A stretch of 62,493 nt of DNA, counting the filler, from Dimorphilus gyrociliatus (Eukaryota > Animalia > Annelida), in the NCBI GenBank assembly GCA_904063045.1. It is 5 parts of 5 records of this genome, joined end to end, with 100 filler letters (N's around TTAATTAATTAA, not from the genome) between each part and the next. Parts side by side here need not be neighbours in the genome. Positions count along the whole stretch, not along the records: positions 1 to 23,517 come from CAJFCJ010000171.1; 4 more parts are not named here. One strand, written 5' to 3'. Below the pieces are notes generated by a model. That model worked only from the letters and a program-made list of their open reading frames with translations. It was not told where the DNA came from and did no database searches. Made by a program: the position numbers and the translations under genes. Each line of letters opens with the position of its first letter. Positions within the stretch are counted from its first letter, which is position 1. Of the stretch, positions 1 through 53,025 are shown piece after piece.

Positions 1-460
1 TCTCTTCAGGATTGACTTGCTGTAAAACATGATAACTGGTTCTACTTGGAAAAGCAGGTTGTTCATGGTGACAAGTAAAAAATTGAGAACATTTGTTATT
101 CTTTTTTATCATGCTTAAGTCACAAACTACTTCTGTTGAGGCTATTGGTGAACATTGTTTAATTATAGCTAATTCTCCCATCTGACTACTGTGCATTCCC
201 AACTCATTTGTTAACACTGTGGTCAATTGAGGATCCAAATTTGCTAGTAATGCCATCATTCTGCTTCTTTGAACCAAATTGATTGCAGAGAAGACTTGAC
301 AGCTGTTGGGTAACTTTTTTAAATTCTTAAAATTTGAATCAATACCATGTAGTAAGGTAGATGTTTGGGCAGCTTCTCTCATTTCCAATGGGAATTTGTG
401 GTATGGGTTTTTACTTATCTTATGTTCAGTTTTGCTTCCTTCTTCATCTGCTTTTAGCCA
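1..460 (-). CDS. Env-like glycoprotein, gB-like domain III/IV segment (open to window edge)
   Basis: Hand translation: ..MALLANLDPQLTTVLTNELGMHSSQMGELAIIKQCSPIASTEVVCDLSMIKKNNKC.., resembling the herpes gB LNPNAIA..MLGDVMAVSTCVPV..NSM..C pattern. Confidence 0.65.
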
Positions 461-463
461 TTC

Positions 464-1060
464 TCATGTGTAGAGTAAAATAAATTCCTTCATAGTAATC
501 TTGAATTCTCTGGCTGGTGGTCCTTTATACCATATGCCCAATGTTGGTAATACCTTCTTTTTGATTCTTTTCTCACTGTATACATATTTTGAAATCGTGA
601 CAGATTGTCTTGTTGCCCTTGTCCAATTGACTGCTTGCAGCATTTCTTGGATATAATAGTTATCCAGCTCCCAGTAAGATGGACTAATGGGTTGTTGTAG
701 ATGATATATCACAACTTCCTTGAGTGTGCCTTTATTTCTCATTAGTTTATACTTTGTGTTTGTTTCTCTGTACCATTGGTTAAGACTTGGTAAGGGGTTG
801 TTTCGCTTGTATAGTATAATTTGTTCTTTAACTTTATTGGGATAGTTTAATAGTCGTTTTTCTTCATTCTTGCCAATCTTCTGATATTGTAGCAAATTGT
901 ATAGGTGTTCCTTGCTTGTTTCCTGTATTAAACTCTGTTCCTCCAGTGGTACTAGTACTTTTGTTCCAGGACCACCAATTCCATCAATAAACTTATCTTG
1001 ATAAGGGATGTCCAGAATAGAATACCCTGGACAAGAATAGTGACCAGCAATTTGATACAA
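464..1060 (-). CDS. Env-like glycoprotein, middle part (frameshifted continuation)
   Basis: Co-oriented ORF overlapping the end of the previous ORF and leading into the gB-like segment. Confidence 0.65.
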   Translation of the reverse strand: MYQIAGHYSCPGYSILDIPYQDKFIDGIGGPGTKVLVPLEEQSLIQETSKEHLYNLLQYQKIGKNEEKRLLNYPNKVKEQIILYKRNNPLPSLNQWYRETNTKYKLMRNKGTLKEVVIYHLQQPISPSYWELDNYYIQEMLQAVNWTRATRQSVTISKYVYSEKRIKKKVLPTLGIWYKGPPAREFKITMKEFILLYT

Positions 1061-4000
1061 CTAATTCTGTTGCTAATTTTTATCCATGGTGATTGTTGCC
1101 CAAGTGTGTAATTATTCTTGAGGTTCCTAAAGACAATAATTGCCTCTTCTGTTTCACAATAGGACTGCCCTGGTAAACAATCTTCCAGGTAGTCCAGATT
1201 AGTTGTAATTTTCATATTAGGAGGTTGCCAATATGCTTTGCCAAACTGGATAATTGTGGTGTATTCCAGCACCTTGGTCGTTGTTGGCCATGTGTAGGCA
1301 GCAGGAAACTGATCTTGGTGGATCCAAGTGTTTCTTTTCACCATTAAAGGTTTTCCTTGAAAAGATCGTTTGTCTTTTATCATCTGTCTGCATTGATCAT
1401 GAGTTACTTTGATAACTGAGTTAACAATCCTCCTCTTCTTTGCTCCAAAGAAATAGTAAGTGTAAAAATTAGTTCTTAGATACACTTGACATTTTACTGC
1501 TCTTGTTTCAATTTCTTCCAAGTTCAATTCATAGATATCAGCTGTAATTGTCTTGGTTTCTTGTGATTCTATATTACAAGTTGGCTCATCTGCTAGATCA
1601 AATGCCTGGCTTGGTAGTTGGTTAGAACAAAAGTATAACGGTGGTTTAAATGTTAAGGTAATGTTTGCACTTGTAACATGGGCACCTTGGTAGGATGGTT
1701 TTGGGACTGTTATTGAGTGGATGCAGCCACAGATCACCATTACAGTCATCACTAGTGGAAGCCACAACATCTGTTTCATGTTAGCTCTTCCTGTGTTGGC
1801 TATAGTTGAATGGTTGAAAATTTTGTGTTGTTGTTCCACTCTGATAGTTATTCCATCTTCTAACTCTATATATTGTGGTTCCACTTCTTGTTGGGAATCT
1901 AATTGTTCAGAGATGATTTTAGTCTCATCTAAAAATATGACTGACTCATTGTCTGTGTCACTTGTATTTTCTTTCTCATCTTGGGATGAATCTACCACTA
2001 TGAGGGACTCATTATCTGAATGGGTTATGTCAATAATTTCACCTTCAATAATTATTGACTCATTATCCGAATGGGTTATATCAATAATTTCGCTTTCAAT
2101 AATTATTGACTCATCGTCTGAACTAGATATTTCATCTTCTCTATCAGAGATAATGTTTGCCTCTGAATCTGTATTTTGATCCAGTTCATTATTTGTTTCT
2201 GTGTCATCACTTTCAGATGAGCTTGAAGGTTCATTGAGACTGTAATTACTGTCTGTTTTGAAAGTATTGCTTGTGTCATAACCAGTATCAGAATTAGTAA
2301 CTTCCATCTCTGAGTCATCACTATCTGAACTTTCTGATGAAGAGTCATGCTGTCCCATCATGGCTATAGTGACTTTGTTTAGTTGAGGTTGCCTTATTCT
2401 TTCAGCCAGGTTCCCTTTCCTTCTATCAAATTTGAGAGAACACTGTTTAGCTTCAAAATTGAGGTTTGCTCCCACAGTTTGTAGGAAATCACAACCAAGT
2501 ATTATTGCTATGTCTAGATTTTCCATAACTATAAATTCTTGTTCCATACTTTCTCCAGCAAATTGGATATTCAGCTTTACGCTTCCTTTTTGCTTTAAAG
2601 CTTTCCCATCAGCTGAAGTTATAATTGGTAAGCCAATTGTTTCTTTATCCATAATTGTAACATCCATTAACTTGATTTCTTTTTCAGTAATAAAGGATCT
2701 CAATGCTCCTGTGTCACACAAGGCAATGACTTCTTGGCCTTTTTGATTCTTCAAACGGAATTGGAAGTCATTTCTTCCTTCTACCTGAGAAAGATATTGG
2801 AGGTGTGTTATTTCCTTCTCCACAAGGTGAAAGATTGTTGTTGCTTCTTTCCCTGTTTCCAACTTATTAGATTCATTGGCTAGTCTTAATCTGCTACCAT
2901 GTACCAACTTGCATGTATTATCATCCATTTGTATTTCATATATCCACTTTTGATGATTGACTTTTGTTATTCGGTATGGGCCTAACCATTTTAAAGAAGG
3001 GATTTTTGTTATTGCAATTCTTGCAGCATCATTTCTTAAGAATACTTCATCATCAACCTCAAAATATTTTGGAAGATTGAGATTTCTATTCTTTCTTTCC
3101 CTATATTGTTCTTTTGCCATGATGGATTTACAGAAGGCTGTAGCTCTTAACTGTACTAATTGCTGCTGGTGATTGAATACAAATAGTACATTTGTTTCAG
3201 GAGAGGTAGTATGCATTGTTACATCAATCAGTGTTCTTGTGCTGGTGCCAAAAAGAAGTTCCTGGGGTGGTAGTCTTGTACTTCCTACAGGTGATTGATT
3301 CAAAAATGCTTGAATCAAGGGTAGGTTTGCAACCCAGTTATGCTGATTTTCTTCCACCACTAATTTATTGATTTCCTTCCTCACTTCTCTATTTCTTCGT
3401 TCAACTAGTCCATTGCTCTGGCTTCTATAAGCTGTTGTTTGGATTTTCTCAATACCTAATACCTTCATAAACTCTTTAAAAGCTTTACCAACAAAGTTTC
3501 TTCCTTGATCTGTCAACATTTGTTTTGGAATTCCAAAAATGGGAAAAAATCTGTTGAAAAGAAGGTTTGCAATTTCTTTACTGGTTTGCTGTTTGAGTGC
3601 ATATAAAACTGTGTATCTACTGAAATGATCCACTATCACAAGTATGAATCTGTATGACTTAACCATGGGTAAGGGTCCCATTATATCCATGGCTACCAAC
3701 TCCATTGGTGATGCAGGGTGAAAGGTTTCTACCAAAGGGTATACTCTACTCCTACCATTCATTTGTTCACACAAAGTGCAATCCTTTATTGAATTCTCAA
3801 TCATAATCTTTAATTTTGGGTGCCAAAAGGTCTTTGTAATTATTTGTAATGTCATTCTGGGTCCATGGTGATTGTGAATTTTATTTTTATGGAATTTAGG
3901 GAGCAGAGTTAGCATCAAATGGTCAGGTAAAACCAGAATGTTTCTTTCTTCAAGGATAATCCAGATCATTTCCTTGTGAACAAACATCTCCATTATGAAA

Positions 4001-4383
4001 GGTGTAAAAGTTCCAAAATAAGGAATAGGTAGCTGACCATCCAATGTTAAATATTCTTTAATTGATTTTAAATTCACATCTTTTTCTTGCTCTGACTGTA
4101 AGTCAACAGAAGACAAATCAATTTTCTCTTCACTGTTATCACTGGTAGCTACAAAAGTTAACTCTGGTGTATGTTCATACTGTTCCATTTTAACTGAAAT
4201 AGAGGGAGAATTCTCCTTTTTGATCTTTCCATGAATTAGCTCTTCAAATGTTACTTTCCTTGGGGGTGTATATTCTTCTAATCTTGTTAATGCATCTGCT
4301 CTATTTTTTCGTCCTGTCACATAGTTAATTGTAAATTTTAAATCCATTAAAGCCATGACCCATTTTGCTGTGCTGACATTCAA
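952..4383 (-). CDS. RNase H end - integrase - second aspartic protease - acidic spacer - signal peptide - Env N-terminal part, one frame
   Basis: NRADALTR; HNHHG..CTLC; DIMGP / TDQGRNF / NGLVERRN; WLGPY; ALCDTGALRSFI..LGCDFL; D/E/S-rich tract; MKQMLWLPLVMTVMVICGCIHS; Cys-patterned ectodomain. Confidence 0.9.
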   Translation of the reverse strand: MNVSTAKWVMALMDLKFTINYVTGRKNRADALTRLEEYTPPRKVTFEELIHGKIKKENSPSISVKMEQYEHTPELTFVATSDNSEEKIDLSSVDLQSEQEKDVNLKSIKEYLTLDGQLPIPYFGTFTPFIMEMFVHKEMIWIILEERNILVLPDHLMLTLLPKFHKNKIHNHHGPRMTLQIITKTFWHPKLKIMIENSIKDCTLCEQMNGRSRVYPLVETFHPASPMELVAMDIMGPLPMVKSYRFILVIVDHFSRYTVLYALKQQTSKEIANLLFNRFFPIFGIPKQMLTDQGRNFVGKAFKEFMKVLGIEKIQTTAYRSQSNGLVERRNREVRKEINKLVVEENQHNWVANLPLIQAFLNQSPVGSTRLPPQELLFGTSTRTLIDVTMHTTSPETNVLFVFNHQQQLVQLRATAFCKSIMAKEQYRERKNRNLNLPKYFEVDDEVFLRNDAARIAITKIPSLKWLGPYRITKVNHQKWIYEIQMDDNTCKLVHGSRLRLANESNKLETGKEATTIFHLVEKEITHLQYLSQVEGRNDFQFRLKNQKGQEVIALCDTGALRSFITEKEIKLMDVTIMDKETIGLPIITSADGKALKQKGSVKLNIQFAGESMEQEFIVMENLDIAIILGCDFLQTVGANLNFEAKQCSLKFDRRKGNLAERIRQPQLNKVTIAMMGQHDSSSESSDSDDSEMEVTNSDTGYDTSNTFKTDSNYSLNEPSSSSESDDTETNNELDQNTDSEANIISDREDEISSSDDESIIIESEIIDITHSDNESIIIEGEIIDITHSDNESLIVVDSSQDEKENTSDTDNESVIFLDETKIISEQLDSQQEVEPQYIELEDGITIRVEQQHKIFNHSTIANTGRANMKQMLWLPLVMTVMVICGCIHSITVPKPSYQGAHVTSANITLTFKPPLYFCSNQLPSQAFDLADEPTCNIESQETKTITADIYELNLEEIETRAVKCQVYLRTNFYTYYFFGAKKRRIVNSVIKVTHDQCRQMIKDKRSFQGKPLMVKRNTWIHQDQFPAAYTWPTTTKVLEYTTIIQFGKAYWQPPNMKITTNLDYLEDCLPGQSYCETEEAIIVFRNLKNNYTLGQQSPWIKISNRISCIKLLVTILVQGILFWTSLIKISLLMELVVLEQKY

Positions 4384-4469
4384 TTTGTTTTGCTTAAATG
4401 TTTGTACTAGACTCTGATGGTCAGTATATAAAAAGAATGGCTTGTCTTGAAGGTAATGTAAAAATTTCT

Positions 4470-7316
4470 TTACAACCCAGTAAACCCAAATGCTTCCTTT
4501 TGATAGGCTGCATATTTCATTTGATTATTGTTGAATTGTTTTGAAGCGTAGGCAATGGGTTTCATTGTTTTCTTCCCATTCTCATCTACATAAACTTGTT
4601 CAAGAACTCCTCCTACAGCTACATTCGATGCATCTGTTGTTAAGTGAAAATCTTTAGCAAAATCAGGTAGTTGTAATACAGGAGGGTTAACTACTGCATC
4701 TCTCAACTTGAAAAATGATTGCTTGGCTTCCTCAGTCCATTGCAATTTATCCTTTTTCCCATGTAGTTTCATTAACATATACAGAGGTTTAGCTACTCTT
4801 GCAAAATCTTGTATAAATTTTCTGTAATAGCCACAAAATGCAACAAAGCTTAGTAGTGAATTTGCAAACACTGGTGGCTGTAAATTATATAATTTATCTG
4901 TCTTGGACTTATCTGTTTCAATCCCCTTTTCTGATACAATGTGTCCCAAGAATTGAACTTGTTCTTTCAAAAACACACATTTACTTAGTTTAATCTTAAA
5001 ATTGTACTTTTGAATCTGTTGAAGAATGGTCTCCAATGCTTCCCAATGTTGGTCCAGCGACTTGGTAAATATTATTATGTCATCAAGGTAGTTTAGGCAC
5101 AAATGCTTTACATCCTTTAGCACAAATGAATTCATTACATAACTAAAATGAGGAGGGGCATTGGTTAATCCAAAAGGCATCTTAATAAATTCAAACAAGC
5201 CAAAAGGTGTAATAAATGCTGTTTTAGACCTATCTTCTTTCTTGATGTTAATGTGGTGGTATGCACTTGTCAAATCCATTGTAGAAAAGAATTTATTTCC
5301 TCCTCCCAAATGGTCAAAAAGATCATCTTGATTTGGCAGTGGATACTTGTTTTTAACTGTCATTTTGTTTAGTTTTCTATAATCTACACACATTCGTAGA
5401 CTACCTTCCTTCTTTCTTACGAAAACAATTGGTGAAGCCCAATTGCTCTTGCTTGGTTGAATAACTTTGCTTTTTACCAATTCAGCTATCTGTTGCTTAC
5501 ATTCTTCTTGTTTTTGAGGAGGCATTCTATATGGCCTTTGTCTATATGGTGTTGAACCTGGTTCAAGAGTTATTTCCAAGGGTGGTACCTCTGGATTGCC
5601 AATATCAAATCTGTCTTCTGCAATAGTTTCTTTATATTTTGCCAGAATTTGGGTAACTTTGTTCTTCATCTCGGGATTTTCTTGTTCAATTGTTGTCTGA
5701 AGGGTATGTATTTGACTCTCATTCTTTTTCATAATAAGAGGAACTGGGTAAAACCCTTTGAAAGATAAGTGTTGTGTTCCAACAGGGTAATTCTTTTCTG
5801 TACCTGGCTGGAGTATAATCTGTCTCTTGCCAAAGTCAAGGGTAGCTCCATTTTGTTGTAGAAAGTCACACCCAATAATACATTGTTGTGTAATGATTTT
5901 GTTGATCAGAAAGCGTTGTTTAATAATCTTTTCATTAAAATAAAGTCTGAGAATGATTTCTCCACATATCTCGATGCTATTTCCTGAAGCATCTCTAGCA
6001 TTTTTCACAGTTTGTTCTGGGAAGGATGCTTTTCCTTGAACTTGTCTTAATACCTTTTTTGAAATGAAAGATCTGTCACTACCAGAGTCTATCAAGGCAT
6101 CAAACTTAAAACCAGTATTAGTTTCAAATTGTCCAATAAATGTTGAAGCATTTCGCTCAGATTGTTTGCTTTGTAACAGCTGACAAGTGGATTCGTCACT
6201 ATCTGAAAAACAGAGAATATCTTGAACTTCGTCGTTTTCTGACATGCTTTCATTGTCTAATGTTTCTAATTTTTGTAGCTTAGGTTCCTCTTTCAGTATC
6301 GTCTTTGCTGGTTGATTTTTCTTATAATACCTATTTGTTGTAGTTGGTGCATACTTTTGGACTTTTTGGCTTGAAAACTTTTCTTTAGTAGCATTTTTGT
6401 TGTCAGGTACATGCTTTCTATTCCAGAAATTTGGGGTTTCTGTAGAAGCATCTTTTCTGATTACCTGGGTCTTTTTGGTCTCTTTTCTTTGTTGAGTTTC
6501 CAATTTTGACACCATTGTGATCGGTTTTCTTTGAGTTAGTTTTAATGAAGTTTCTGCTTGCTTAGCAGCCTCATATAGTTCTGCCAATGTTTGACATTTA
6601 GGATGTAAGGTGTACACTAAATGTAGAATATCCTGTTGTAATCCTCTTTGTAAAACTTCCATCAGTTTTATTTCTTTCATAGTTGCAAGCAATTGTGGTT
6701 CCATTGGTCTAGGTGGAGAAAACCTCTTTATCAATTTCTTTGCTCTATTAACAAACTGAACCACACTTTCGCCATTCATTTGCTTTAAGTTAAGCAATTT
6801 CTCCTGATACTCCAAAGGATCTAGATCAAATTCGTCATGGAGGGCTTTCCATATTTCCTCCACAGTAGGCTCTCCATCCAGAGCCAACACCAAATCCTTT
6901 GCAGGACCAGTTAAATAATCTAAAAGATTTGCTTTCACAACATCTTCTCCTATCCAACCATAAGCATAACATGCCTGATTAAAGTCTTCTTTGAATTTTG
7001 AACACTCCTTGCTTCCATCATACAACTTGAGAATAGTTCTTTGAGGGCGGTCCCAAGCAGCCCTTAATGCTTGAATTACTGTTGTGATATCAACATTTGG
7101 GTTCTGTGCTGGGTGATGTGTTCCATCTCCATGATCTGTTGGAATTGTGATTCGATTTCTTTTCATTTCACTCACCAATCTATCATAGTCTTCAATTAGT
7201 CTTTGTTGCCTTTCTGACATTCCTGCTGGCTGAATTGTAATTGTTGGAGTTGCTGGGGTTGAAGGGTTAGAGTCTGTAACTGCCCCAGTGGCGTTTCCAT
7301 TTCCTCCTTCTGCCAT
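4470..7316 (-). CDS. Gag-PR-RT-RNase H (N-part) polyprotein; likely start MAEGG at 7316
   Basis: Retrotransposon capsid-like Gag (LYDGSK..YLTGPAK..LKQMNGESV), ALIDSGSDRSFIS, LRMCVDYRKLN, YLDDII, LTTDASNVAVGGVL; frame ends inside RNase H. Confidence 0.93.
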   Translation of the reverse strand: MAEGGNGNATGAVTDSNPSTPATPTITIQPAGMSERQQRLIEDYDRLVSEMKRNRITIPTDHGDGTHHPAQNPNVDITTVIQALRAAWDRPQRTILKLYDGSKECSKFKEDFNQACYAYGWIGEDVVKANLLDYLTGPAKDLVLALDGEPTVEEIWKALHDEFDLDPLEYQEKLLNLKQMNGESVVQFVNRAKKLIKRFSPPRPMEPQLLATMKEIKLMEVLQRGLQQDILHLVYTLHPKCQTLAELYEAAKQAETSLKLTQRKPITMVSKLETQQRKETKKTQVIRKDASTETPNFWNRKHVPDNKNATKEKFSSQKVQKYAPTTTNRYYKKNQPAKTILKEEPKLQKLETLDNESMSENDEVQDILCFSDSDESTCQLLQSKQSERNASTFIGQFETNTGFKFDALIDSGSDRSFISKKVLRQVQGKASFPEQTVKNARDASGNSIEICGEIILRLYFNEKIIKQRFLINKIITQQCIIGCDFLQQNGATLDFGKRQIILQPGTEKNYPVGTQHLSFKGFYPVPLIMKKNESQIHTLQTTIEQENPEMKNKVTQILAKYKETIAEDRFDIGNPEVPPLEITLEPGSTPYRQRPYRMPPQKQEECKQQIAELVKSKVIQPSKSNWASPIVFVRKKEGSLRMCVDYRKLNKMTVKNKYPLPNQDDLFDHLGGGNKFFSTMDLTSAYHHINIKKEDRSKTAFITPFGLFEFIKMPFGLTNAPPHFSYVMNSFVLKDVKHLCLNYLDDIIIFTKSLDQHWEALETILQQIQKYNFKIKLSKCVFLKEQVQFLGHIVSEKGIETDKSKTDKLYNLQPPVFANSLLSFVAFCGYYRKFIQDFARVAKPLYMLMKLHGKKDKLQWTEEAKQSFFKLRDAVVNPPVLQLPDFAKDFHLTTDASNVAVGGVLEQVYVDENGKKTMKPIAYASKQFNNNQMKYAAYQKEAFGFTGL

Positions 7317-7354
7317 ATTTACTTTCTCAAAACTTTTGAATAAACCAAAAGAAT

Positions 7355-7372
7355 ATCCTGTCGACTGCGCCA
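7355..7372 (-). promoter_or_regulatory. Primer binding site TGGCGCAGTCGACAGGAT, probably tRNA-Ser
   Basis: Begins TGG just after the LTR; complementary to the metazoan tRNA-Ser type 3' end (TCCTG.CGACTGCGCCA), assigned from memory. Confidence 0.8.
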
Positions 7373-7376
7373 AATT

Positions 7377-8011
7377 TGTACTGCTCTTGCTGGCAAAATC
7401 TATGCGTTTGCAAGTTATAACAATACTGGTTCTACTCGAACCTTTAAACAAATGTTTAAATTAAAATGGTTTATTCGCAATAATAATACTTAAGCAAGTA
7501 ACAATATGAGAGTTCAATAGCAGAGTAGATAGTTTGTAATAGCAGGTTGCCAAATTACCAAACTGTCTTCCAATGTTGAGGAGTAGATGGATGGTTCCAG
7601 TGGAGGTTGTTTCCAGATGATTTTCCCAGGTCCTTGGGTCCAGATGGAAGCTGCATGCCAAATGAGAATAATGAGGATTTATATACTTTGAGGTTTGTCT
7701 CTGACATCCAATCATCACTTTACAGTTGCCAAAATGTGTAGTTCATATTTATCTTTAGTAACAGGATGTTACAAGGTTCAACATTTAGGAAGGTTAATTG
7801 AATTATAACTTGGCCACACCCTAGGCAAGTTAATTAAATTATAACTTGGCCAAACCTTTATTGGTAATTAAAGATGAACCTTCAAGCTGACTAATCAGAC
7901 TTATGTTTGGCCAATGTTATAGCATTTTCTTGCGTAGGTTTTAAGATGTACATGTATATGTTGCATAAAATAATAGAGTTCAAGCATGTAAAATATAACC
8001 AAAGTTGTACA
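7377..8011 (-). repeat. 5' LTR of copy A (635 bp, TGTAC...GTACA)
   Basis: Identity with copy B starts exactly at TGTACAAC with different flanks; ends GTACA 4 nt before the PBS; contains TATATAAA and AATAAA. Confidence 0.9.
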
Positions 8012-10317: not shown

Positions 10318-10416
10318 CAGTTGCCTTCTACCGGTTGCCTTCCACCTGTTGCCTTACCACAGTTGACCTTCCCCAGTTGAGCCTTCTACAGCTGCCTTAC
10401 TACAGTTGCCTTCTCA
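10318..10416 (+). repeat. Seven ~14-nt tandem units, consensus CAGTTGCCTTCYAC
   Basis: Read directly from the sequence. Confidence 0.9.
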
Positions 10417-11884
10417 AAAGATTCTTCACCATCATCCATCACTAACTTCTCTAGTCTGATCTTTCCAACACAACATTCTGTCTAATTTAAAGTAAGATAT
10501 CTATTGTGAATTTTGGTTGATTCCTTGGACTTTGTCCTGAATTGATCAAATGTCTTTTATATAAGGTTTTCTGGTTGATTCCTTTTCTTTTGAATCTGAA
10601 TTGACCTTGTTTTGTAGGGAACAGCTTTGTTAATGCTCTAATTTATAGTAAGGTTTCATTTCACAGAGAAATAATTCTCTTATTAAAAGTAACAATAACA
10701 TCCTTCTCTTTATATTAGAAACTTAAACTAAATGGGTTTTCCATTTTTCCACCATAGTTTCTCTAATTTACATGATAGAGATTTGATTTTTTTAACATTG
10801 GGAGTGTAGACTATGCCAAATTCAAATCCGTTTACAGAAATAATATAACACTTGTAGTTTTTCAGTTATTAGCTGTTGAAAAAGGTTTTTTAAAAGTTGC
10901 TTTTTGCATAGAAAACATTAAGATTTGACATATTTCTTTGGGTAGGATATTAAATAATATGCCAATTAATTAAAAACATTAAACTAGGTTAACATATTGA
11001 ATGTTTCTTTCTTAAAAAAATTAACTTTTTTAATTGAAAACATGTCAAAATGTTTCGGATGCTCTTAATTGATTAATACATAAGATTAGGTAGTTATTCC
11101 TTATCTATAGCTGTAAGTCTTTGCTCTTAAATTAAATAATTGATACAAATCTTACTTAAAGTTGTTAATCTTTAAAATATAGACTGTTCAAAAATTTATC
11201 GAATATTCAATTTTTGTCATAGAAAATCATGCTATTTTAATATTATTGTTAAATATATAACTGTAGAAGTAAATAAGCTTAACGTAGGTATAAACAGATT
11301 TAAATTCTGTTAGGTAATAGCTGAGAAAAGTTAATTTTTCGATTTTGAAAAAGGTGACTTAAAACAATGTATTTAAAAATAGATCAAACATCTACAGATG
11401 TATTAATTCTTTACAAATTTGATTGAATAATAAGATAAGCAACAATCTTATTTATAATTATCATTTTAGGAGAAGTCTGGGTTAATTTTTTATCATTTTC
11501 TTTAATTATTTCATGATTTATGTACACAAATAGGCCTATAGCTCCTTTAATATTAGAGCTAGAAACTTGATTTTTTGAACGTAGAAAGATATTACTAAAC
11601 CTAAATTAAATTTTGTAACAAATTCATCCTATCTGGTATAGTTTTTGCTCATTTGACAGTGGAACATAAACTTTTCAACTTAATTTTTATAGTAGAAAAT
11701 CCAAACTGTTAACCTTCATTCTTGTATAGGCTAATTAGAATTTAAATGGGCTAAACATAGATCAAAACAGATCTAAAATCAGTCAAGTAAATGCTGAGAA
11801 AAGTTAAATTAAAGATTGTAATATTTGTTAAAAAATAGCTATAATTATAATCAATAATGTTGTGTTTAATACTTTTTGCGCAGG

Positions 11885-13390
11885 ATGAATATCCAGTGGT
11901 TTATGCCCTTCAAAACTCTGCCTTATATGCATCCTCATGTTGATGTAAACATGAACAATTTAAAAGTCCAACTAAGATACATTCTACAATGCTATTTCAA
12001 AGCAGAGAATTGTAAAGTAGCAAATCATTGGAATCACCTTTTAGAAAATGAAATAAAGAGGACAGATCTTGGAGGCAAAAATAAGTTAGATTATTATAGA
12101 GATAATAGAGAGAATAACATATTTGAAGACATATTTGAAGGCAAAAAACAGCTGATAAATACTGTAGAAAGATGCTTTAAAGATTTTTATGAATTGCACA
12201 AGAAACTTAATCAATACTTCTACTTAAAAAGATTGTTAAATCTTTTAGAATCTAAGGAAGAGTTAATTAAAGTATTAAATTTTGTAAATGGGGAAGTGTT
12301 AAATACTAAGAGGAATATGAAGAATTTCTCCAAATCATATTTTGATGAATTTTATCAAGATGTTCTTAATTTTTATGACAATATGAAGAAAAGAAATAGA
12401 GATTTTCAGGAAAACGAAATTGTAAATCAAGCTTCTGCACCACAGCAAATAGAAAATACACAAGTTATTAAAGAGGTTGCTGTTCAAGTGGATAGGGCCC
12501 CTACCCATAACATTGCTGTTCAAGTAAAGAAGCCATTAACAATTGATATTGCTGTTCAAATATCTAAAACATTCAAACATGGAAGCACCCAAACTACTGT
12601 ATCAAGGTCAACTAACAAGAGAAAGATTCCAAAAGTGAAGGAGGTGAAGGATTCAGAAAGAGAAAATCAAGGAGGGGAACCACAAAGAAAGAAGCTAAGA
12701 GTTGAAAGAGCAACAGAGCAGGAGCAAGAGAAAGGAAAAGAACCAAAACAGCAAAAAGAGTCACTCAAGAGAAAGAAGTCTAGAGTTGAAGGAAGAAGAG
12801 AAGAAAAAGCGCAGCAAGCAGAGAAAGAAAAAGAGGAAGAACATCCAGAGGGAAAAAAGGAGGAAAGAGTTATGGAATTGAATAAATTTAAATACATAAA
12901 GAGAAAGAATGTGAAATTGGATAAAGCCTTTAAAGGAAAATGTAGACAGGAACATTATGACTGTATAATAATTAGTGATTGTTCCTTTGATAGACTGTCA
13001 GAGAAACAACTCTTCCAGATTAAAGATACAACTATGGGAATCAGCAAAAATGTTGTGTTTTTCCAAATAGAGAAATTGACATTTTTGGATATAATTGAAA
13101 TATGCCAGAAATGGAAATTTTCATTTACAAAAATATTTTTCTTCTCCAAACAGAAACCTAAAACTTCTGGAGAAATTCTCAATCAGTCAGTCAAACTTGA
13201 AAAGATATATCTCCCTGTCAACTATTTTACAACTTATACTGAGAGAAATATGAAGAGAACTGGATTGAACTTTATAGCACTTCCTCAACAATTGCAGAGC
13301 AAGTTAATCAATAAAAACGGTGGTTATAATCAGCTTTCTCAACAACAAGATCAATACCTCCTACTTAAACACTTCTTTAATGAATTGTAA
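11885..13390 (+). CDS. ORF1: unknown N-domain, charged linker, C-terminal SGNH/GDSL-like domain
   Basis: ~500-aa intact ORF; ATG just after acceptor TTTTGCGCAG; CIIISDCSF motif paralogous to ORF2 and ORF3. Confidence 0.75.
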   Translation: MNIQWFMPFKTLPYMHPHVDVNMNNLKVQLRYILQCYFKAENCKVANHWNHLLENEIKRTDLGGKNKLDYYRDNRENNIFEDIFEGKKQLINTVERCFKDFYELHKKLNQYFYLKRLLNLLESKEELIKVLNFVNGEVLNTKRNMKNFSKSYFDEFYQDVLNFYDNMKKRNRDFQENEIVNQASAPQQIENTQVIKEVAVQVDRAPTHNIAVQVKKPLTIDIAVQISKTFKHGSTQTTVSRSTNKRKIPKVKEVKDSERENQGGEPQRKKLRVERATEQEQEKGKEPKQQKESLKRKKSRVEGRREEKAQQAEKEKEEEHPEGKKEERVMELNKFKYIKRKNVKLDKAFKGKCRQEHYDCIIISDCSFDRLSEKQLFQIKDTTMGISKNVVFFQIEKLTFLDIIEICQKWKFSFTKIFFFSKQKPKTSGEILNQSVKLEKIYLPVNYFTTYTERNMKRTGLNFIALPQQLQSKLINKNGGYNQLSQQQDQYLLLKHFFNEL

Positions 13391-15321: not shown

Positions 15322-16451
15322 GTCATTTAAAAATCAATTTGATCAGGCGAAAAAAAATTTTACACGTAAAAACAAATGTTTGACAAGTAAAAAATAAAGA
15401 AATGTTAAATCTTTAACTATAACAGTTTAATTCATAGAAGCATTTAATTACTATATTTGGTTGATGATTTCTCATAATAATCTTTCTATATTCTTTATAC
15501 AGAGCCAACTTTTTGCTGATTGATTTGCTATTTGCTGCTCTTTTTTTTCAACATTTTTCTTGGATTACAGAGTTAGTTATATGTTACATTGTAATATGAA
15601 TTTTTATTATTATTATATATTTTTTCTTACAGCATCTCAACCTTAAATCTGATTGACCACATTTGAAGTTCTACAAGATCAAAACCTACTAACTGTTCCC
15701 TTCTTCTTCTTGAGTCTTACAAGAATCTAGCTATAAATGTAAGTAGTTTATGTTTTGTTTTGAAGAGTTTTGTCTCCATAAATAAATTTACAGCCCTTGG
15801 TATGAATTTATTTTTGTTTTAAATATTTCTTTATGTTAATATATTGAGATATTCCACCTTTCTTATAAATTTAAAAGGATTACTTTTATGTAAAAAGAAA
15901 TACAAAGAAACACTTTTTTGAAACTTTTTAATTTATTATAAAAACTTGTATATTCCCAATGAAAAAAAGTTCACCTTTTAGGTTCTTCATTTCAATGGAA
16001 TATATATGCAAAGTTTAGGACTGCAAAATTCTACATTTTTCTTTACAGAATAACTCTAAATGAAATGGCTTTTTTTGCTTTTAAATTTACAATTATTCTT
16101 TTCCTAAATTTTAACTATTTTTCATGAGAAACACTTTTTGCTTTCCAGTTTTTTTAATGTGAAAGGTTGTTGATTCTCCATGAAACAAGTTTGCCTTTTA
16201 GGCTCTTTATTTCAAAGGAGTAAATATGCAACATAATTTAATTTCAGATCCAAAATTTTTCTCTACAGAATATCATTAAAAAAAATTATTTTTTTGGTTC
16301 TATGAGGAGGAATATCACAAATATGATCAGAAATATATTTATATATATGGTTAGGCTACTTATATTTATGTTCATGTTGAGTTACAAACTATGTTATTGA
16401 ATAGATATTTATGTTTTGTTTCTTTTTTGTTATTCATTTAAGAAAGGAATA

Positions 16452-19040
16452 ATGAATTGTAAACTGAAAATGAAAGGAAATAAAGAAAAAACAAAGCTAC
16501 AAATCCATCCATGGTTTTATCCTGATATCTTTAAAGAAAAGGAATGCCTTAAATTCAATTTCAATACAGCACAATCTGATATTTACAAACAACTTAAGTT
16601 CATCATTGAAAAGCATATTGAAAAATATATTGGTGTCCCATTCAAAAAAATTTGTAGTTCATCAGAATTCTTATACTTTGTCAATAGATTTAATATTACA
16701 AAAGCTTTTCAAGAATCAATGAAAAATGAATATAAGAAGTTTAAAGATCTAATTGAAAAAATGTATTTGGAAAATCTGGAACATTACCTTGTATTTGAAA
16801 ATTATGCTAATAATCTTGGTATTCTATGCAGACACTTTGATGAAAATGATATCAAAAGATGGATTTCAAAAATCTTTTTGGAAAAATCTGCCAGATTGGA
16901 CAAGGACTTTGTTGATGAAACAAAAGAGAGTTTGATGGAATTTTGTGTAAGATGTAAAAGTAATGATAAAAACAGGAAAAAGAACAAACCTAACCCTGAG
17001 TCATCTAGAAGAGAAAATGGTGTAAGTGACATGGCTGCTATAATAGATATTGGTACAAATGGTGAAAAAATTAAAGAAATCACAATAATGAAAAAGGTTA
17101 CAACTGATAGTATAATTAAAGAAATACAAGAAGATAAGAAAGATACAAGTCATGGCACAATTAAGGAAATGAAAGGAAATAGGAAATATACAAGTGACAA
17201 GGAAATAGAAAAATCATCAGTTGTTGAAAAAGATGAAAGTCATAAGAAATTGAAAGCAACATCTATAATAGAGACACATACAAGTGATAATATTGTAAAA
17301 GAAACACTTGTAACAGAGAAGGATGCAAATTATAAGGAAATAGAAGAAACAACTATTCTACAGAAAAATTATGATACTAATATCAAAGATAAAGGGGATA
17401 GTCTGAAAGAACATCAACAAATTTTTAATGAATTGGAAAGAGAAAATGAACAAAGTATTCTAACAACAATTGATTCTCCAAGTGATAACAAGCCAGAACA
17501 AGTGAAAGATGATGAGTTTATTGCAGAAAAGAGAGACTCTGTTAGTATAACCAATGAAGAAAACAATCAACAAACCAAATCAACTGAATCTAGTATAGAA
17601 AGAAATAATGAACAAATAGTAAATACAGCTGAGGAAACCAAGAATAAAACAGCAACTGAAGAAAAGGATAAAAATGAGGAAGAAAGGTTTACAGATCAAA
17701 TCAGTGTTGAAAATGATCTTACTGAAATGATGGAAACAGCTACAAATGAAAATGATAACAAATTTTGTTCAAGAGACATTTCAAATGAGACAATCATGGG
17801 TGCTTGTGATAAAGAATCTGTTGTTACAAAATTACATTTGTCAAAAAATTTTGAATTAGGATCACCATTAAAAACATCTTCACCAATAGAAACTACTAAC
17901 AATATCTCCATTGATTCTAGTGAACTGGATTTGTTTGATGAAAAAGCCTGGTTGGCATTGGAAGAGATGAGGTCTCAAGATCACTGCAAAGAAGCAAAAA
18001 AAATGGGTATAGATGGAGCCAATGCACTTGTTTTGAGTATGACAGATTGCATCAAAAAATATAAGGGATGGAAAATGATATTGAGGAACAATTATAGAAA
18101 AGATAAAAAGCTGATTGATATTTATAGAGAATGGGGAAAGAATTTCTTGTCAGACAAGGAGGCAAAAAACTTTTCAAAGTTATTGCCACCAAATATACAA
18201 ATGAAAACAGAATTTTTTATGATATCTGACAGTTCATTTAGAGATATTCAAGTCAAAACTATCTCAATATTAGCCTCCAAATATAAAATTGCTAAAAATG
18301 GAATATTAATCAACATTAGCCAATTAAACTATGAAGATATTTTACCCATTTTAATAAACTGGAATATTCAATGTCAATATATATTCATACATACAAATTT
18401 AAATTCTCCTAAAGAAACATATGGATTAGCAAAATTTCTAAAGAACAAGTATGGAACTTGCAAGAATGTGATCATAGCCATTCCATTTGGCACAAAACTA
18501 TTTTCTGCATACAAAGATATTCAAATGGCAACTAAGAACCAAGCCACTGTTCTTGATATGACTGATATGAGAAAATTGGGATTTACAGATAATCCAACTG
18601 GAAATTCGAAATGTAAACACCTGACAAAGAAGGCACAAGAATTTTCAATTGATTTAGTAATGAAAACTTTGCAGAGAATTATCAAAGATCAGAAAGAGGA
18701 AACAATGGACATAGATACATCAACTAACAAGGTAATATTAATGTCTGGATTTAATTTCTATAAACAATTAAATACTCAATATGTTGTTAATTTGAGCAAA
18801 TATCAGATTCCAAATGATGTCAATAGTTTTTTTAATCTTGGTTTAAAGTTTGTACATGAAAGTATAAAACCAGACAAATGGAAGCAATACACATTGTTCA
18901 ATTTAGAGAGATTCTTTAAAAAAGTATCAATCATTAAAAAACAAAATAAATCAACAAATCTGGAAAATCTTAGATGTATTAACTATCAATGGATACCAAA
19001 AGAAGGATTTGAAAGAAATATAACATCTGTTGAAAACTAG
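16452..19040 (+). CDS. ORF2 N-half: N-domain, acidic linker, helical segment, SGNH-like domain, start of the PLE pol (VVNLS..LGLKF)
   Basis: Intact ORF; FFMISDSSFRDI..KHLTKKA; PLE N-terminal motif YVVNLSKYQIPNDVNSFFNLGLKF at ~18783. Confidence 0.8.
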   Translation: MNCKLKMKGNKEKTKLQIHPWFYPDIFKEKECLKFNFNTAQSDIYKQLKFIIEKHIEKYIGVPFKKICSSSEFLYFVNRFNITKAFQESMKNEYKKFKDLIEKMYLENLEHYLVFENYANNLGILCRHFDENDIKRWISKIFLEKSARLDKDFVDETKESLMEFCVRCKSNDKNRKKNKPNPESSRRENGVSDMAAIIDIGTNGEKIKEITIMKKVTTDSIIKEIQEDKKDTSHGTIKEMKGNRKYTSDKEIEKSSVVEKDESHKKLKATSIIETHTSDNIVKETLVTEKDANYKEIEETTILQKNYDTNIKDKGDSLKEHQQIFNELERENEQSILTTIDSPSDNKPEQVKDDEFIAEKRDSVSITNEENNQQTKSTESSIERNNEQIVNTAEETKNKTATEEKDKNEEERFTDQISVENDLTEMMETATNENDNKFCSRDISNETIMGACDKESVVTKLHLSKNFELGSPLKTSSPIETTNNISIDSSELDLFDEKAWLALEEMRSQDHCKEAKKMGIDGANALVLSMTDCIKKYKGWKMILRNNYRKDKKLIDIYREWGKNFLSDKEAKNFSKLLPPNIQMKTEFFMISDSSFRDIQVKTISILASKYKIAKNGILINISQLNYEDILPILINWNIQCQYIFIHTNLNSPKETYGLAKFLKNKYGTCKNVIIAIPFGTKLFSAYKDIQMATKNQATVLDMTDMRKLGFTDNPTGNSKCKHLTKKAQEFSIDLVMKTLQRIIKDQKEETMDIDTSTNKVILMSGFNFYKQLNTQYVVNLSKYQIPNDVNSFFNLGLKFVHESIKPDKWKQYTLFNLERFFKKVSIIKKQNKSTNLENLRCINYQWIPKEGFERNITSVEN

Positions 19041-29310: not shown

Positions 29311-29945
29311 TGTACAACTTTGGTTATATTTTACATGCTTGAACTCTATTATTTTATGCAACATATACATGTACATCTTAAAACCTACGCAAGAAAATGC
29401 TATAACATTGGCCAAACATAAGTCTGATTAGTCAGCTTGAAGGCTCATCTTTAATTACCAATAAAGGTTTGGCCAAGTTATAATTTAATTAACTTGCCTA
29501 GGGTGTGGCCAAGTTATAATTCAATTAACCTTCCTAAATGTTGAACCTTGTAACATCCTGTTACTAAAGATAAATATGAACTACACATTTCGGCAACTGT
29601 AAAGTGATGATTGGATGTCAGAGACAAACCTCAAAGTATATAAATCCTCATTATTCTCATTTGGCATGCAGCTTCCATCTGGACCCAAGGACCTGGGAAA
29701 ATCATCTGGAAACAACCTCCACTGGAACCTTCCATCTACTCCTCAACATTGGAAGACAGTTTGGTAATTTGGCAACCTGCTATTACAAACTATCTACTCT
29801 GCTATTGAACTCTCATATTGTTACTTGCTTAAGTATTATTATTGCGAATAAACCATTTTAATTTAAACATTTGTTTAAAGGTTCGAGTAGAACCAGTATT
29901 GTTATAACTTGCAAACGCATAGATTTTGCCAGCAAGAGCAGTACA
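29311..29945 (+). repeat. 5' LTR of copy B (635 bp)
   Basis: TGTAC..GTACA; about 3 substitutions versus LTR A by eye. Confidence 0.9.
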
Positions 29946-29949
29946 AATT

Positions 29950-29967
29950 TGGCGCAGTCGACAGGAT
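29950..29967 (+). promoter_or_regulatory. PBS of copy B (tRNA-Ser type)
   Basis: TGGCGCAGTCGACAGGAT, 4 nt after the LTR. Confidence 0.8.
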
Positions 29968-32900
29968 ATTCTTTTGGTTTATTCAAAAGTTTTGAGAAAG
30001 TAAATATGGCAGAAGGAGGAAATGGAAACGCCACTGGGGCAGTTACAGACTCTAACCCTTCAACCCCAGCAACTCCAACAATTACAATTCAGCCAGCAGG
30101 AATGTCAGAAAGGCAACAAAGACTAATTGAAGACTATGATAGATTGGTGAGTGAAATGAAAAGAAATCGAATCACAATTCCAACAGATCATGGAGATGGA
30201 ACACATCACCCAGCACAGAACCCAAATGTTGATATCACAACAGTAATTCAAGCATTAAGGGCTGCTTGGGACCGCCCTCAAAGAACTATTCTCAAGTTGT
30301 ATGATGGAAGCAAGGAGTGTTCAAAATTCAAAGAAGACTTTAATCAGGCATGTTATGCTTATGGTTGGATAGGAGAAGATGTTGTGAAAGCAAATCTTTT
30401 AGATTATTTAACTGGTCCTGCAAAGGATTTGGTGTTGGCTCTGGATGGAGAGCCTACTGTGGAGGAAATATGGAAAGCCCTCCATGACGAATTTGATCTA
30501 GATCCTTTGGAGTATCAGGAGAAATTGCTTAACTTAAAGCAAATGAATGGCGAAAGTGTGGTTCAGTTTGTTAATAGAGCAAAGAAATTGATAAAGAGGT
30601 TTTCTCCACCTAGACCAATGGAACCACAATTGCTTGCAACTATGAAAGAAATAAAACTGATGGAAGTTTTACAAAGAGGATTACAACAGGATATTCTACA
30701 TTTAGTGTACACCTTACATCCTAAATGTCAAACATTGGCAGAACTATATGAGGCTGCTAAGCAAGCAGAAACTTCATTAAAACTAACTCAAAGAAAACCG
30801 ATCACAATGGTGTCAAAATTGGAAACTCAACAAAGAAAAGAGACCAAAAAGACCCAGGTAATCAGAAAAGATGCTTCTACAGAAACCCCAAATTTCTGGA
30901 ATAGAAAGCATGTACCTGACAACAAAAATGCTACTAAAGAAAAGTTTTCAAGCCAAAAAGTCCAAAAGTATGCACCAACTACAACAAATAGGTATTATAA
31001 GAAAAATCAACCAGCAAAGACGATACTGAAAGAGGAACCTAAGCTACAAAAATTAGAAACATTAGACAATGAAAGCATGTCAGAAAACGACGAAGTTCAA
31101 GATATTCTCTGTTTTTCAGATAGTGACGAATCCACTTGTCAGCTGTTACAAAGCAAACAATCTGAGCGAAATGCTTCAACATTTATTGGACAATTTGAAA
31201 CTAATACTGGTTTTAAGTTTGATGCCTTGATAGACTCTGGTAGTGACAGATCTTTCATTTCAAAAAAGGTATTAAGACAAGTTCAAGGAAAAGCATCCTT
31301 CCCAGAACAAACTGTGAAAAATGCTAGAGATGCTTCAGGAAATAGCATCGAGATATGTGGAGAAATCATTCTCAGACTTTATTTTAATGAAAAGATTATT
31401 AAACAACGCTTTCTGATCAACAAAATCATTACACAACAATGTATTATTGGGTGTGACTTTCTACAACAAAATGGAGCTACCCTTGACTTTGGCAAGAGAC
31501 AGATTATACTCCAGCCAGGTACAGAAAAGAAATTACCCTGTTGGAACACAACACTTATCTTTCAAAGGGTTTTACCCAGTTCCTCTTATTATGAAAAGAA
31601 TGAGAGTCAAATACATACCCTTCAGACAACAATTGAACAAGAAAATCCGAGATGAAGAACAAAGTTACCCAAATTCTGGCAAAATATAAAGAAACTATTG
31701 CAGAAGACAGATTTGATATTGGCAATCCAGAGGTACCACCCTTGGAAATAACTCTTGAACCAGGTTCAACACCATATAGACAAAGGCCATATAGAATGCC
31801 TCCTCAAAAACAAGAAGAATGTAAGCAACAGATAGCTGAATTGGTAAAAAGCAAAGTTATTCAACCAAGCAAGAGCAATTGGGCTTCACCAATTGTTTTC
31901 GTAAGAAAGAAGGAAGGTAGTCTACGAATGTGTGTAGATTATAGAAAACTAAACAAAATGACAGTTAAAAACAAGTATCCACTGCCAAATCAAGATGATC
32001 TTTTTGACCATTTGGGAGGAGGAAATAAATTCTTTTCTACAATGGATTTGACAAGTGCATACCACCACATTAACATCAAGAAAGAAGATAGGTCTAAAAC
32101 AGCATTTATTACACCTTTTGGCTTGTTTGAATTTATTAAGATGCCTTTTGGATTAACCAATGCCCCTCCTCATTTTAGTTATGTAATGAATTCATTTGTG
32201 CTAAAGGATGTAAAGCATTTGTGCCTAAACTACCTTGATGACATAATAATATTTACCAAGTCGCTGGACCAACATTGGGAAGCATTGGAGACCATTCTTC
32301 AACAGATTCAAAAGTACAATTTTAAGATTAAACTAAGTAAATGTGTGTTTTTGAAAGAACAAGTTCAATTCTTGGGACACATTGTATCAGAAAAGGGATT
32401 GAAACAGATAAGTCCAAGACAGATAAATTATATAATTTACAGCCACCAGTGTTTGCAAATTCACTACTAAGCTTTGTTGCATTTTGTGGCTATTACAGAA
32501 AATTTATACAAGATTTTGCAAGAGTAGCTAAACCTCTGTATATGTTAATGAAACTACATGGGAAAAAGGATAAATTGCAATGGACTGAGGAAGCCAAGCA
32601 ATCATTTTTCAAGTTGAGAGATGCAGTAGTTAACCCTCCTGTATTACAACTACCTGATTTTGCTAAAGATTTTCACTTAACAACAGATGCATCGAATGTA
32701 GCTGTAGGAGGAGTTCTTGAACAAGTTTATGTAGATGAGAATGGGAAGAAAACAATGAAACCCATTGCCTACGCTTCAAAACAATTCAACAATAATCAAA
32801 TGAAATATGCAGCCTATCAAAAGGAAGCATTTGGGTTTACTGGGTTGTAAAGAAATTTTTACATTACCTTCAAGACAAGCCATTCTTTTTATATACTGAC

Positions 32901-35097
32901 CATCAGAGTCTAGTACAAACATTTAAGCAAAACAAATTGAATGTCAGCACAGCAAAATGGGTCATGGCTTTAATGGATTTAAAATTTACAATTAACTATG
33001 TGACAGGACGAAAAAATAGAGCAGATGCATTAACAAGATTAGAAGAATATACACCCCCAAGGAAAGTAACATTTGAAGAGCTAATTCATGGAAAGATCAA
33101 AAAGGAGAATTCTCCCTCTATTTCAGTTAAAATGGAACAGTATGAACATACACCAGATTAACTTTTGTAGCTACCAGTGATAACAGTGAAGAGAAAATTG
33201 ATTTGTCTTCTGTTGACTTACAGTCAGAGCAAGAAAAAGATGTGAATTTAAAATCAATTAAAGAATATTTAACATTGGATGGTCAGCTACCTATTCCTTA
33301 TTTTGGAACTTTTACACCTTTCATAATGGAGATGTTTGTTCACAAGGAAATGATCTGGATTATCCTTGAAGAAAGAAACATTCTGGTTTTACCTGACCAT
33401 TTGATGCTAACTCTGCTCCCTAAATTCCATAAAAATAAAATTCACAATCACCATGGACCCAGAATGACATTACAAATAATTACAAAGACCTTTTGGCACC
33501 CAAAATTAAAGATTATGATTGAGAATTCAATAAAGGATTGCACTTTGTGTGAACAAATGAATGGTAGGAGTAGAGTATACCCTTTGGTAGAAACCTTTCA
33601 CCCTGCATCACCAATGGAGTTGGTAGCCATGGATATAATGGGACCCTTACCCATGGTTAAGTCATACAGATTCATACTTGTGATAGTGGATCATTTCAGT
33701 AGATACACAGTTTTATATGCACTCAAACAGCAAACCAGTAAAGAAATTGCAAACCTTCTTTTCAACAGATTTTTTCCCATTTTTGGAATTCCAAAACAAA
33801 TGTTGACAGATCAAGGAAGAAACTTTGTTGGTAAAGCTTTTAAAGAGTTTATGAAGGTATTAGGTATTGAGAAAATCCAAACAACAGCTTATAGAAGCCA
33901 GAGCAATGGACTAGTTGAACGAAGAAATAGAGAAGTGAGGAAGGAAATCAATAAATTAGTGGTGGAAGAAAATCAGCATAACTGGGTTGCAAACCTACCC
34001 TTGATTCAAGCATTTTGAATCAATCACCTGTAGGAAGTACAAGACTACCACCCCAGGAACTTCTTTTTGGCACCAGCACAAGAACACTGATTGATGTAAC
34101 AATGCATACTACCTCTCCTGAAACAAATGTACTATTTGTATTCAATCACCAGCAGCAATTAGTACAGTTAAGAGCTACAGCCTTCTGTAAATCCATCATG
34201 GCAAAAGAACAATATAGGGAAAGAAAGAATAGAAATCTCAATCTTCCAAAATATTTTGAGGTTGATGATGAAGTATTCTTAAGAAATGATGCTGCAAGAA
34301 TTGCAATAACAAAAATCCCTTCTTTAAAATGGTTAGGCCCATACCGAATAACAAAAGTCAATCATCAAAAGTGGATATATGAAATACAAATGGATGATAA
34401 TACATGCAAGTTGGTACATGGTAGCAGATTAAGACTAGCCAATGAATCTAATAAGTTGGAAACAGGGAAAGAAGCAACAACAATCTTTCACCTTGTGGAG
34501 AAGGAAATAACACACCTCCAATATCTTTCTCAGGTAGAAGGAAGAAATGACTTCCAATTCCGTTTGAAGAATCAAAAAGGCCAAGAAGTCATTGCCTTGT
34601 GTGACACAGGAGCATTGAGATCCTTTATTACTGAAAAAGAAATCAAGTTAAGGATGTTACAATTATGGATAAAGAAACAATTGGCTTACCAATTATAACT
34701 TCAGCTGATGGGAAAGCTTTAAAGCAAAAAGGAAGCGTAAAGCTGAATATCCAATTTGCTGGAGAAAGTATGGAACAAGAATTTATAGTTATGGAAAATC
34801 TAGACATAGCAATAATACTTGGTTGTGATTTCCTACAAACTTGGGAGCAAACCTCAATTTTGAAGCTAAACAGTGTTCTCTCAAATTTGATAGAAGGAAA
34901 GGGAACCTGGCTGAAAGAATAAGGCAACCTCAACTAAACAAAGTCACTATAGCCATGAGGGACAGCATGACTCTTCATCAGAAATCAGATAGTGATGACT
35001 CAGAGATGGAAGTTACTAATTCTGATACTGGTTATGACACAAGCAATACTTCAAAACAGACAGTAATTACAGTCTCAATGAACCTTCAAGCTCATCT

Positions 35098-52925: not shown

Positions 52926-53025
52926 NNNNNNNNNNNNNNNNNNNNNNNNNNNNNNNNNNNNNNNNNNNNTTAATTAATTAANNNNNNNNNNNNNNNNNNN
53001 NNNNNNNNNNNNNNNNNNNNNNNNN
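52926..53025. other. Artificial gap/linker
   Basis: N44-TTAATTAATTAA-N44. Confidence 0.97.

Follow-up and report, generated by a model that had tools for sequence, protein, structure and literature searches.

The question raised by this locus is whether a Ty3/gypsy retroelement carries, as its env gene, a viral fusion protein of class III (the class of herpesvirus gB and rhabdovirus G), whether such an env would be a new capture, and how it would be expressed. The element lies on the minus strand of a 62,493-nucleotide (nt) stretch of DNA from the annelid Dimorphilus gyrociliatus, here called the window; all positions are window positions, and positions 1 to 23,517 come from record CAJFCJ010000171.1 (assembly GCA_904063045.1). 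We are confident that the element belongs to a young multi-copy Ty3/gypsy family, very likely the catalogued Dgyr_errantivirus_1, with an env predicted to be of class III. An earlier note on this DNA, made from the sequence alone, had suggested that this may be an independent capture. Class III env proteins in Ty3/gypsy elements have already been published, however, and a matching element is in print (PMC13524379, as far as that source was accessible), so that the element is not supported as a new capture on present evidence.

The signal peptide at Met 1779 and the cysteine and aromatic motifs from which the earlier note had argued are all present on the minus strand, with YFCS at 1635, KC at 1494, YYFFGAK at 1458, QC near 1398 and YTWPTTT at 1296 in the N-terminal part (N-part), and LANLDPQ at 247, MGELAIIKQCSPI at 181 and LSM at 118 in the distal part. 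Homologous proteins recovered by our searches (P0002-P0012) may come from retroelements or viruses; they form a small unnamed class III fusogen-like family with absent or weak Pfam matches, and the contigs that carry P0007 and P0003 are 7-9.6 kb long. An exhaustive search of 1.84 billion representatives with the env N-piece yielded seven relatives at E≤0.001 (E 2e-55 to 5e-5), and one more came from an alignment-based search with A1, a nine-sequence profile of the N-part that includes the window piece. No match was returned by a word-based search of longer proteins with the N-piece, nor by locus scans of viral contigs and metagenome contigs. The distal piece is collinear with two of five tested relatives (P0003 and P0005; z 11.6 and 16.1, scores that 0 of 200 shuffles reach) and does not align to the other three. 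Because these two relatives match both parts in order, N-part and distal part can be assigned to one protein family. Between them, the env region 355-1050 (minus strand) holds about 130-170 residues more than P0003 and P0005, possibly an extra domain.

The likeness of the N-part to rhabdovirus G, proposed by eye in the earlier note, is borne out by profiles: P0003 passes the Pfam family Rhabdo_glycop_FD (25.6 bits, cut-off 22), P0006 falls narrowly short and the other five N-piece relatives do not match it, while A1 finds four PDB sequences at E≤10, all of them lyssavirus-type G (best E 9e-4). The A1 alignment places YYFFG and YTWP opposite two segments of rabies G, which we take to be its fusion loops, and both positions are kept in all nine rows (two of which are 98% identical). 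The gB-like character claimed for the distal part is echoed, weakly, by A3, a five-sequence distal profile that includes the window piece; its five PDB matches are all herpesvirus gB (Epstein-Barr virus gB 449-531, best E 0.007), and P0012 has a weak Pfam gB match in its distal region (E 0.017). The gB-like reading of the distal part rests on these weak matches, because the structural model of P0003 stays below pLDDT 50 there. Searches of PDB by phmmer returned nothing or one irrelevant match (E 0.78) for the env pieces, and two irrelevant ones for P0003 alone.

Comparison of a predicted structure with known fusogens, which the earlier note had named as the way to check its idea, gave a class III match through the homologue P0003. 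Its AlphaFold2 model, built from an 11-row alignment, has a mean pLDDT of 52 and is confident only at about residues 66-244. Against 48,161 chains, the top 11 rows are all class III fusogens (Z 9.2 to 5.0, the next row having Z 4.1), led by herpes simplex virus 1 gB (Z 9.2, root-mean-square deviation (rmsd) 6.2, 183 residues aligned) and including Chandipura G (Z 8.1, rmsd 5.3, 166 aligned), human cytomegalovirus gB, MHV68 gB, thogotovirus Gp, gp64 and rabies G. Among the matches that Foldseek listed for this model in PDB, 36 of 36 are gB or rhabdovirus G, and in a viral library the list is led by glycoproteins of rhabdo-like viruses (E 1.2e-11). The Atlas neighbours of P0007 are clusters of rhabdovirus G, Monjiviricetes fusion protein, gB and gp64, all of class III. 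Taken together, models and profiles predict that the env of the element is a class III fusion protein, with a rhabdovirus-G-like N-part and, more weakly, a gB-like distal part.

The body of the element is that of a Ty3/gypsy retroelement. Its order on the minus strand is long terminal repeat (LTR), primer-binding site (PBS), gag, protease (PR), reverse transcriptase (RT), RNase H (RH), integrase (IN) and env, and the backbone named in the earlier note is confirmed by the Pfam families RVT_1, RT_RNaseH_2, Integrase_H2C2 and rve, which follow the PR-RT-RH-IN order, and by Ty3 chains as the closest relatives of the RT. The RT was assigned by similarity to the closest solved chains, which are those of Ty3 (4OL8, E 1e-76; Ty3-G Gag-Pol 7Q5B, E 1.2e-75), with caulimovirus (8e-40) and retroviral RTs far weaker; PDB may contain no BEL/Pao RT. 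The Pfam listing for the element contains no BEL/Pao-type family, and the set of Ty3/gypsy families together with the Ty3 chains rules out a BEL/Pao identity. The coding region falls into two long frames. The first, 7460..4470, holds gag, the DSG protease, RT and most of RNase H; the second, 4524..952, runs stop-free for 1,190 codons through the end of RNase H, the integrase, a second protease, an acidic spacer, the env signal segment and the env N-part. Met 1779 thus lies inside this second frame and is not the start of a separate open reading frame (ORF). We take the PBS to be of the tRNA-Ser type, and no tRNA gene is found within the window. The table of PMC13524379 has "others" for the PBS type of Dgyr_errantivirus_1. 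Of the features listed for Metaviridae (PMC7879559), two flanking LTRs, a PBS and a purine tract, and gag followed by PR-RT-RH-IN are present. The coordinates are collected in Table 1.

Table 1. Positions of the parts of the element, from its LTR to env, and of its second copy in the window.
Feature	Position	Strand	Remarks
5' LTR	7377..8011	-	635 bp; TGTA...TACA ends; many run contigs diverge from the window at 8011 and near 7377; copy 2 has the same start (29311)
Primer-binding site	7355..7372	-	4 nt past the LTR; 12-mer at 7361-7372
gag	6200..7316	-	First Met 7316; shares the pol frame; Pfam PNMA sub-threshold (E 1.8e-4)
Protease 1	5829..6164	-	DSG motif at 6089; Pfam RVP sub-threshold (E 0.002)
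Reverse transcriptase and RNase H	4345..5699	-	RVT_1 E 9.6e-34; RT_RNaseH_2 E 2.1e-21; window copy broken once in RNase H
Integrase (HHCC, catalytic core, GPY/F-type C-terminal module)	2884..3927	-	Integrase_H2C2 E 1.1e-8; rve E 6.6e-13; Integrase_p58_C E 0.02
Second retropepsin domain	2431..2766	-	In frame after the integrase; DTG at 2715, ILGCDFL at 2502; D[TS]G motif, flap region and C-terminal hydrophobic-Gly motif present
Acidic Ser/Thr-rich spacer	1780..2361	-	194 residues; 27% D+E, 26% S+T, 4% K+R
Signal-peptide-like hydrophobic segment, env start	1714..1779	-	ATG at 1779; 19-mer window up to 2.07 Kyte-Doolittle; homologues begin similarly
env N-part (fusion domain predicted to be of class III, with its flanking domain)	1051..1713	-	Candidate fusion loops YYFFG (1458) and YTWP (1296)
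env middle piece	467..1060	-	First ~80 aa match P0002; remainder without match
env distal piece (putatively gB-like: end of the central helix and subsequent strands)	2..355	-	Runs off the window edge
Second copy, LTR to spacer	29311..35097	+	99.7% identical; stops at an assembly gap before env

The 3' end of the element lies beyond the window and was approached with contigs of public runs (X1-X6). The stretch is present in five of the six runs, none of them recorded as RNA; X6, with short, diverged pieces only, was left out, and in all cases the run contigs merge copies of the element. One short-read contig of X2 connects the end of the LTR (8011) to position 1 across 668 intervening letters; it puts the 3' LTR 668 nt beyond the window edge, so that env lies inside the LTRs, as the earlier note had assumed. 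Loose ends after 8011 in X1 and X3 place a purine tract (on the element strand) beside the LTR. From Met 1779 to the 3' LTR there are at most 815 codons, and the unseen 3' part has room for about 220 of them; P0005 has 208 residues past its last aligned position, which fits. The transmembrane anchor would fall in these 668 nt, so that of the 3' end sought in the earlier note, the LTR and the purine tract were recovered and the anchor was not reached. Single anchors are found in P0007 and in each of P0009-P0011, that of P0007 being a hydrophobic segment at 571 of 631. As a candidate anchor, the hydrophobic residues encoded by 1068-1020 in the pol frame were rejected, because the match to P0002 continues there in another frame.

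The published catalogue of Chary & Hayashi (PMC13524379; eLife 2026; bioRxiv 10.1101/2023.10.26.564294), in the portion of its text and tables that was available, counts 221 entries with env of the HSV/gB type among 1,512 elements, and describes such env genes in Ty3/gypsy elements of many animal phyla; the view that gB-like env is mainly a matter of BEL/Pao elements, from which the earlier note had started, is therefore outdated. Row 15 of its table, Annelida_Polychaeta_Dgyr_errantivirus_1, carries the label ENV_HSV, 7 near-identical copies and LTRs at 1669-2299 and 10348-10983. The element of the window has the same PBS 12-mer and the same 4-nt gap between LTR and PBS, its LTR measures 635 bp against 630-636 bp, and the distance from LTR start to LTR start is 8,011+668 against 8,679, an exact tie that is partly luck given the small errors of the window; it is likewise Ty3/gypsy and multi-copy.

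Several observations speak against this reading of the element and its env. The match to Dgyr_errantivirus_1 is one of four features, with coordinates rather than sequences compared, and the catalogue gives that element a GAG-POL label and a chromodomain (from HHpred and AlphaFold) in the part seen, whereas our Pfam scan of 2380-3090 finds no chromodomain family at E≤10. The 3' LTR is tied to the element by one contig of one run, and the window part of env holds no transmembrane anchor. As for the fold, the protein modelled is P0003, a homologue of 27% identity with residues 269-469 under pLDDT 50, and the Atlas recognition value of P0007 is low (1450). The element's own env N-piece matches no Pfam family and no Atlas cluster, and folded alone, as a single sequence, it reached a pLDDT of 32 and was not used.

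How env would be expressed is a separate matter, and here the most unusual part of the element comes in. A single frame runs from integrase via a second protease and then an acidic spacer into the signal peptide of env, an arrangement that the earlier note does not mention. The second retropepsin reaches or exceeds the cut-offs of four Pfam protease families (the best being RVP_2, with 30.1 bits versus 20.3) and is 31% identical to protease 1 (90 aa, E 1e-11), an identity that points to an old duplicate or a separate gain; about 40 residues only separate it from the GPY/F module. Read in the pol frame, the spacer is uninterrupted; the two other frames contain 13 and 35 stops, and shuffling left it open in 0 of 2000 trials. 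At 2006-2107 it contains a tandem pair of 51-nt units with 92% identity, a sign that in-frame duplication has lengthened it. Over the stretch from integrase to env, neither the X1 contig 358-5931 nor the X3 contig 774-3526 differs in length from the window. The openly licensed literature yielded no account of LTR elements with a second protease; in the accessible main text of PMC13524379 the word "protease" occurs once, and that text mentions neither a second protease nor an acidic spacer nor an in-frame junction of pol and env. Pol joined to Env through a second protease and an open acidic spacer is thus a layout that we have not found in print.

These data suggest a model for the element. 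By its family membership it would replicate like other Metaviridae, that is by tRNA-primed reverse transcription and integration (PMC7879559). Env would be made as part of a single polyprotein of Gag, Pol, second protease, spacer and Env, its internal hydrophobic segment would insert in the membrane of the endoplasmic reticulum, and cleavage by signal peptidase would release the ectodomain into the lumen. On the cytosolic side, a cut by a retropepsin, most naturally the second one, would keep integrase from staying anchored to the membrane. Such processing would resemble that of flavivirus or alphavirus polyproteins, and our searches found no scheme of this kind described for LTR elements. Env may then form trimers on particles and, judging from its fold, may fuse them to a neighbouring (germ-line) cell via the two aromatic loops, in the manner of gB and rhabdovirus G; in the part of PMC13524379 at hand, cell entry of gB-type errantiviruses is stated to be unknown. 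We favour polyprotein processing tentatively, giving it close to an even chance. A dedicated role of the second protease seems doubtful to us. The same doubt attaches to the fullest version, in which capsid, enzymes and class III fusogen come from one frame of up to about 2,650 codons with two working retropepsins, the second cutting in or beside the spacer to release Pol, and in which env may be a separate capture from a rhabdovirus-like donor.

The need for a second protease is what the variation among the runs calls into question. A 60-nt in-frame deletion (2627-2686) is the main form in X4 and X5 and absent from X1, X2 and X3, that is, present in two of five informative runs, suggesting that two variants of the element segregate; the main contigs of X4 and X5 accordingly lack 20 residues just past the catalytic motif. 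The ratio of non-synonymous to synonymous changes is 7:5 in the frame of the second protease versus 2:9 in gag-RT (25 variants, with 40 of 73 rows listed), and a weak word-based search (proteins of 654-2,083 aa) found no relative with the same junction of integrase and protease. Such a deletion would sit well with env being translated from a spliced subgenomic RNA that starts at or near Met 1779, in the same element and with the same class of env, the second protease and spacer being a C-terminal tail of Pol that is possibly decaying. Env of Drosophila gypsy is made from a spliced subgenomic RNA. Met 1779 and the hydrophobic segment have the look of an ordinary N-terminal signal peptide, the homologues are called as free-standing proteins with such starts, and the GAG-POL label in the catalogue, as far as seen, points the same way. 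On the other hand, the window and the X1 and X3 contigs all read from Pol into env without a stop, the spacer is open throughout its 194 codons beyond what shuffling would produce, and a crude scan for a pyrimidine tract followed by AG detects no acceptor within the 150 nt that precede Met 1779. Splicing of env is a serious possibility, which we put somewhat below even odds.

As to its origin, instead of descending from an old HSV/gB-type stock of errantiviruses, env might have been acquired separately, in this lineage alone, from a negative-strand RNA virus of the rhabdovirus-like (Monjiviricetes) kind. This would agree with the match of its N-part to rhabdovirus G by sequence and with the rhabdo-like glycoproteins that head the viral model search. 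In the rows of the catalogue available (2-87, annelid rows included), Dgyr_errantivirus_1 is also the only HSV-type entry, 14 of the 15 polychaete rows seen being of F type, and it is outside the 32 HSV-type ectodomains modelled there. The distal part, however, matches herpesvirus gB only, a mixed pattern is expected of any old class III protein, and identity to viral proteins in the fold searches is 6-16%. The catalogue, in the text seen, argues for an ancient acquisition of env, with proteins not alignable enough for a global tree. We consider a separate capture unlikely, and keep to a predicted class III env of the HSV/gB type in what is very likely a catalogued family.

That env could be a dead, frameshifted relic in a defective element is suggested by the window copy itself, in which the env frame breaks near 1050 and several more times within 1-500, and that of RNase H once. 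Yet all four runs of one comparison differ in length from the window at the same eight listed env places, and X3, among its listed rows, does so at seven of these eight and at the one in RNase H. The RNase H break is contradicted by X1, X4, X5 and X3 (three of the four runs of the first comparison, with a contig end there in the fourth). Copies 1 and 2 differ by 11 gap openings and 3 substitutions, a pattern that looks like error, and 7 near-identical copies are counted in the catalogue, in the row seen. Because the five contig sets agree mutually and differ from the window at the breaks, the env and RNase H breaks are likely errors of the window assembly, as judged from sequence comparison, and a dead relic is very improbable; as the run contigs merge copies, an intact state of any single copy is not thereby proven. 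A sister family of Dgyr_errantivirus_1, which the feature-based comparison and the differing chromodomain label would allow, is just as improbable, since four independent features agree with the catalogue entry as far as it was seen, among them the exact PBS 12-mer and the 8.68-kb span.

Other genes and elements are found around the two copies. On the plus strand, an ORF at 28378-29295 encodes a Death domain (E 1.5e-14) and, after it, a TIR domain (E 2.5e-18), a layout like that of MyD88. A gap of 15 nt separates its end from the LTR of copy 2 (29311), and the insertion may interrupt this Death-TIR immune gene or sit in one of its introns. Two long adjoining ORFs of 879 and 794 aa occupy 16401-21418 (plus strand); neither has a Pfam match at E≤0.01, the second shows RT-like motifs by eye (YLDD) and is presumably Penelope-like, and an ORF at 11870-13390 appears by eye to be related to the first. 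A large gene for a gel-forming mucin or SCO-spondin-like protein fills 36274-52969 (minus strand), with VWD, C8, TIL and LDLa domains, pieces that resemble TSP1 by eye, and long repeats of the peptide TTGT. At 53181-54503 (plus strand) there is an exon of a receptor with LDLa, leucine-rich repeats (LRR) and seven transmembrane segments (7TM), which we take to be relaxin-receptor or GRL101-like, and at 61063-61731 (minus strand) a piece of an ORF, by eye a Tc1/IS630-type DDE transposase, is cut by an assembly gap.

What this study adds to the catalogued family is support from profiles and folds for assigning env to class III, the likely origin of the window's frameshifts in assembly errors, and the layout of second protease and open spacer. 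If the second protease works, it would reveal a route to env expression in LTR elements that does without splicing. Being young, multi-copy and set in a small genome, the family would also be convenient for studying expression and particles of gB-type errantiviruses.

Compared with known systems, the element stands closest to the HSV/gB-type errantiviruses, as described in the accessible part of PMC13524379, with which it shares the gag-pol-env order, the signal peptide, the Cys-patterned class III ectodomain and the fusion loops. Their furin site is not always present, and the env pieces of the window contain no furin motif; the element differs in having a second protease, a spacer and an interval between N-part and distal part that is longer than in P0003 and P0005. 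With the class III fusogens of viruses (gB 2GUM, 5CXF and 3FVC; rhabdovirus G 7U9G and 4D6W; thogotovirus Gp; baculovirus gp64) its env is predicted to share the fold of fusion domain and PH-like domain, while being encoded by a retroelement and similar to them only at the low identity noted above for the P0003 model. BEL/Pao elements with a chuvirus-type glycoprotein (Anakin) also combine an LTR element with a captured viral fusogen, but the Pol is of the Ty3/gypsy type here. The errantiviruses of the Drosophila gypsy kind, which as the ICTV genus Errantivirus form a monophyletic insect clade, are again LTR elements with a captured fusogen, in their case an F-type env; because the env of the window is not of F type, the name "errantivirus" applies to the present element only in the operational sense in which PMC13524379, in the part seen, employs it.

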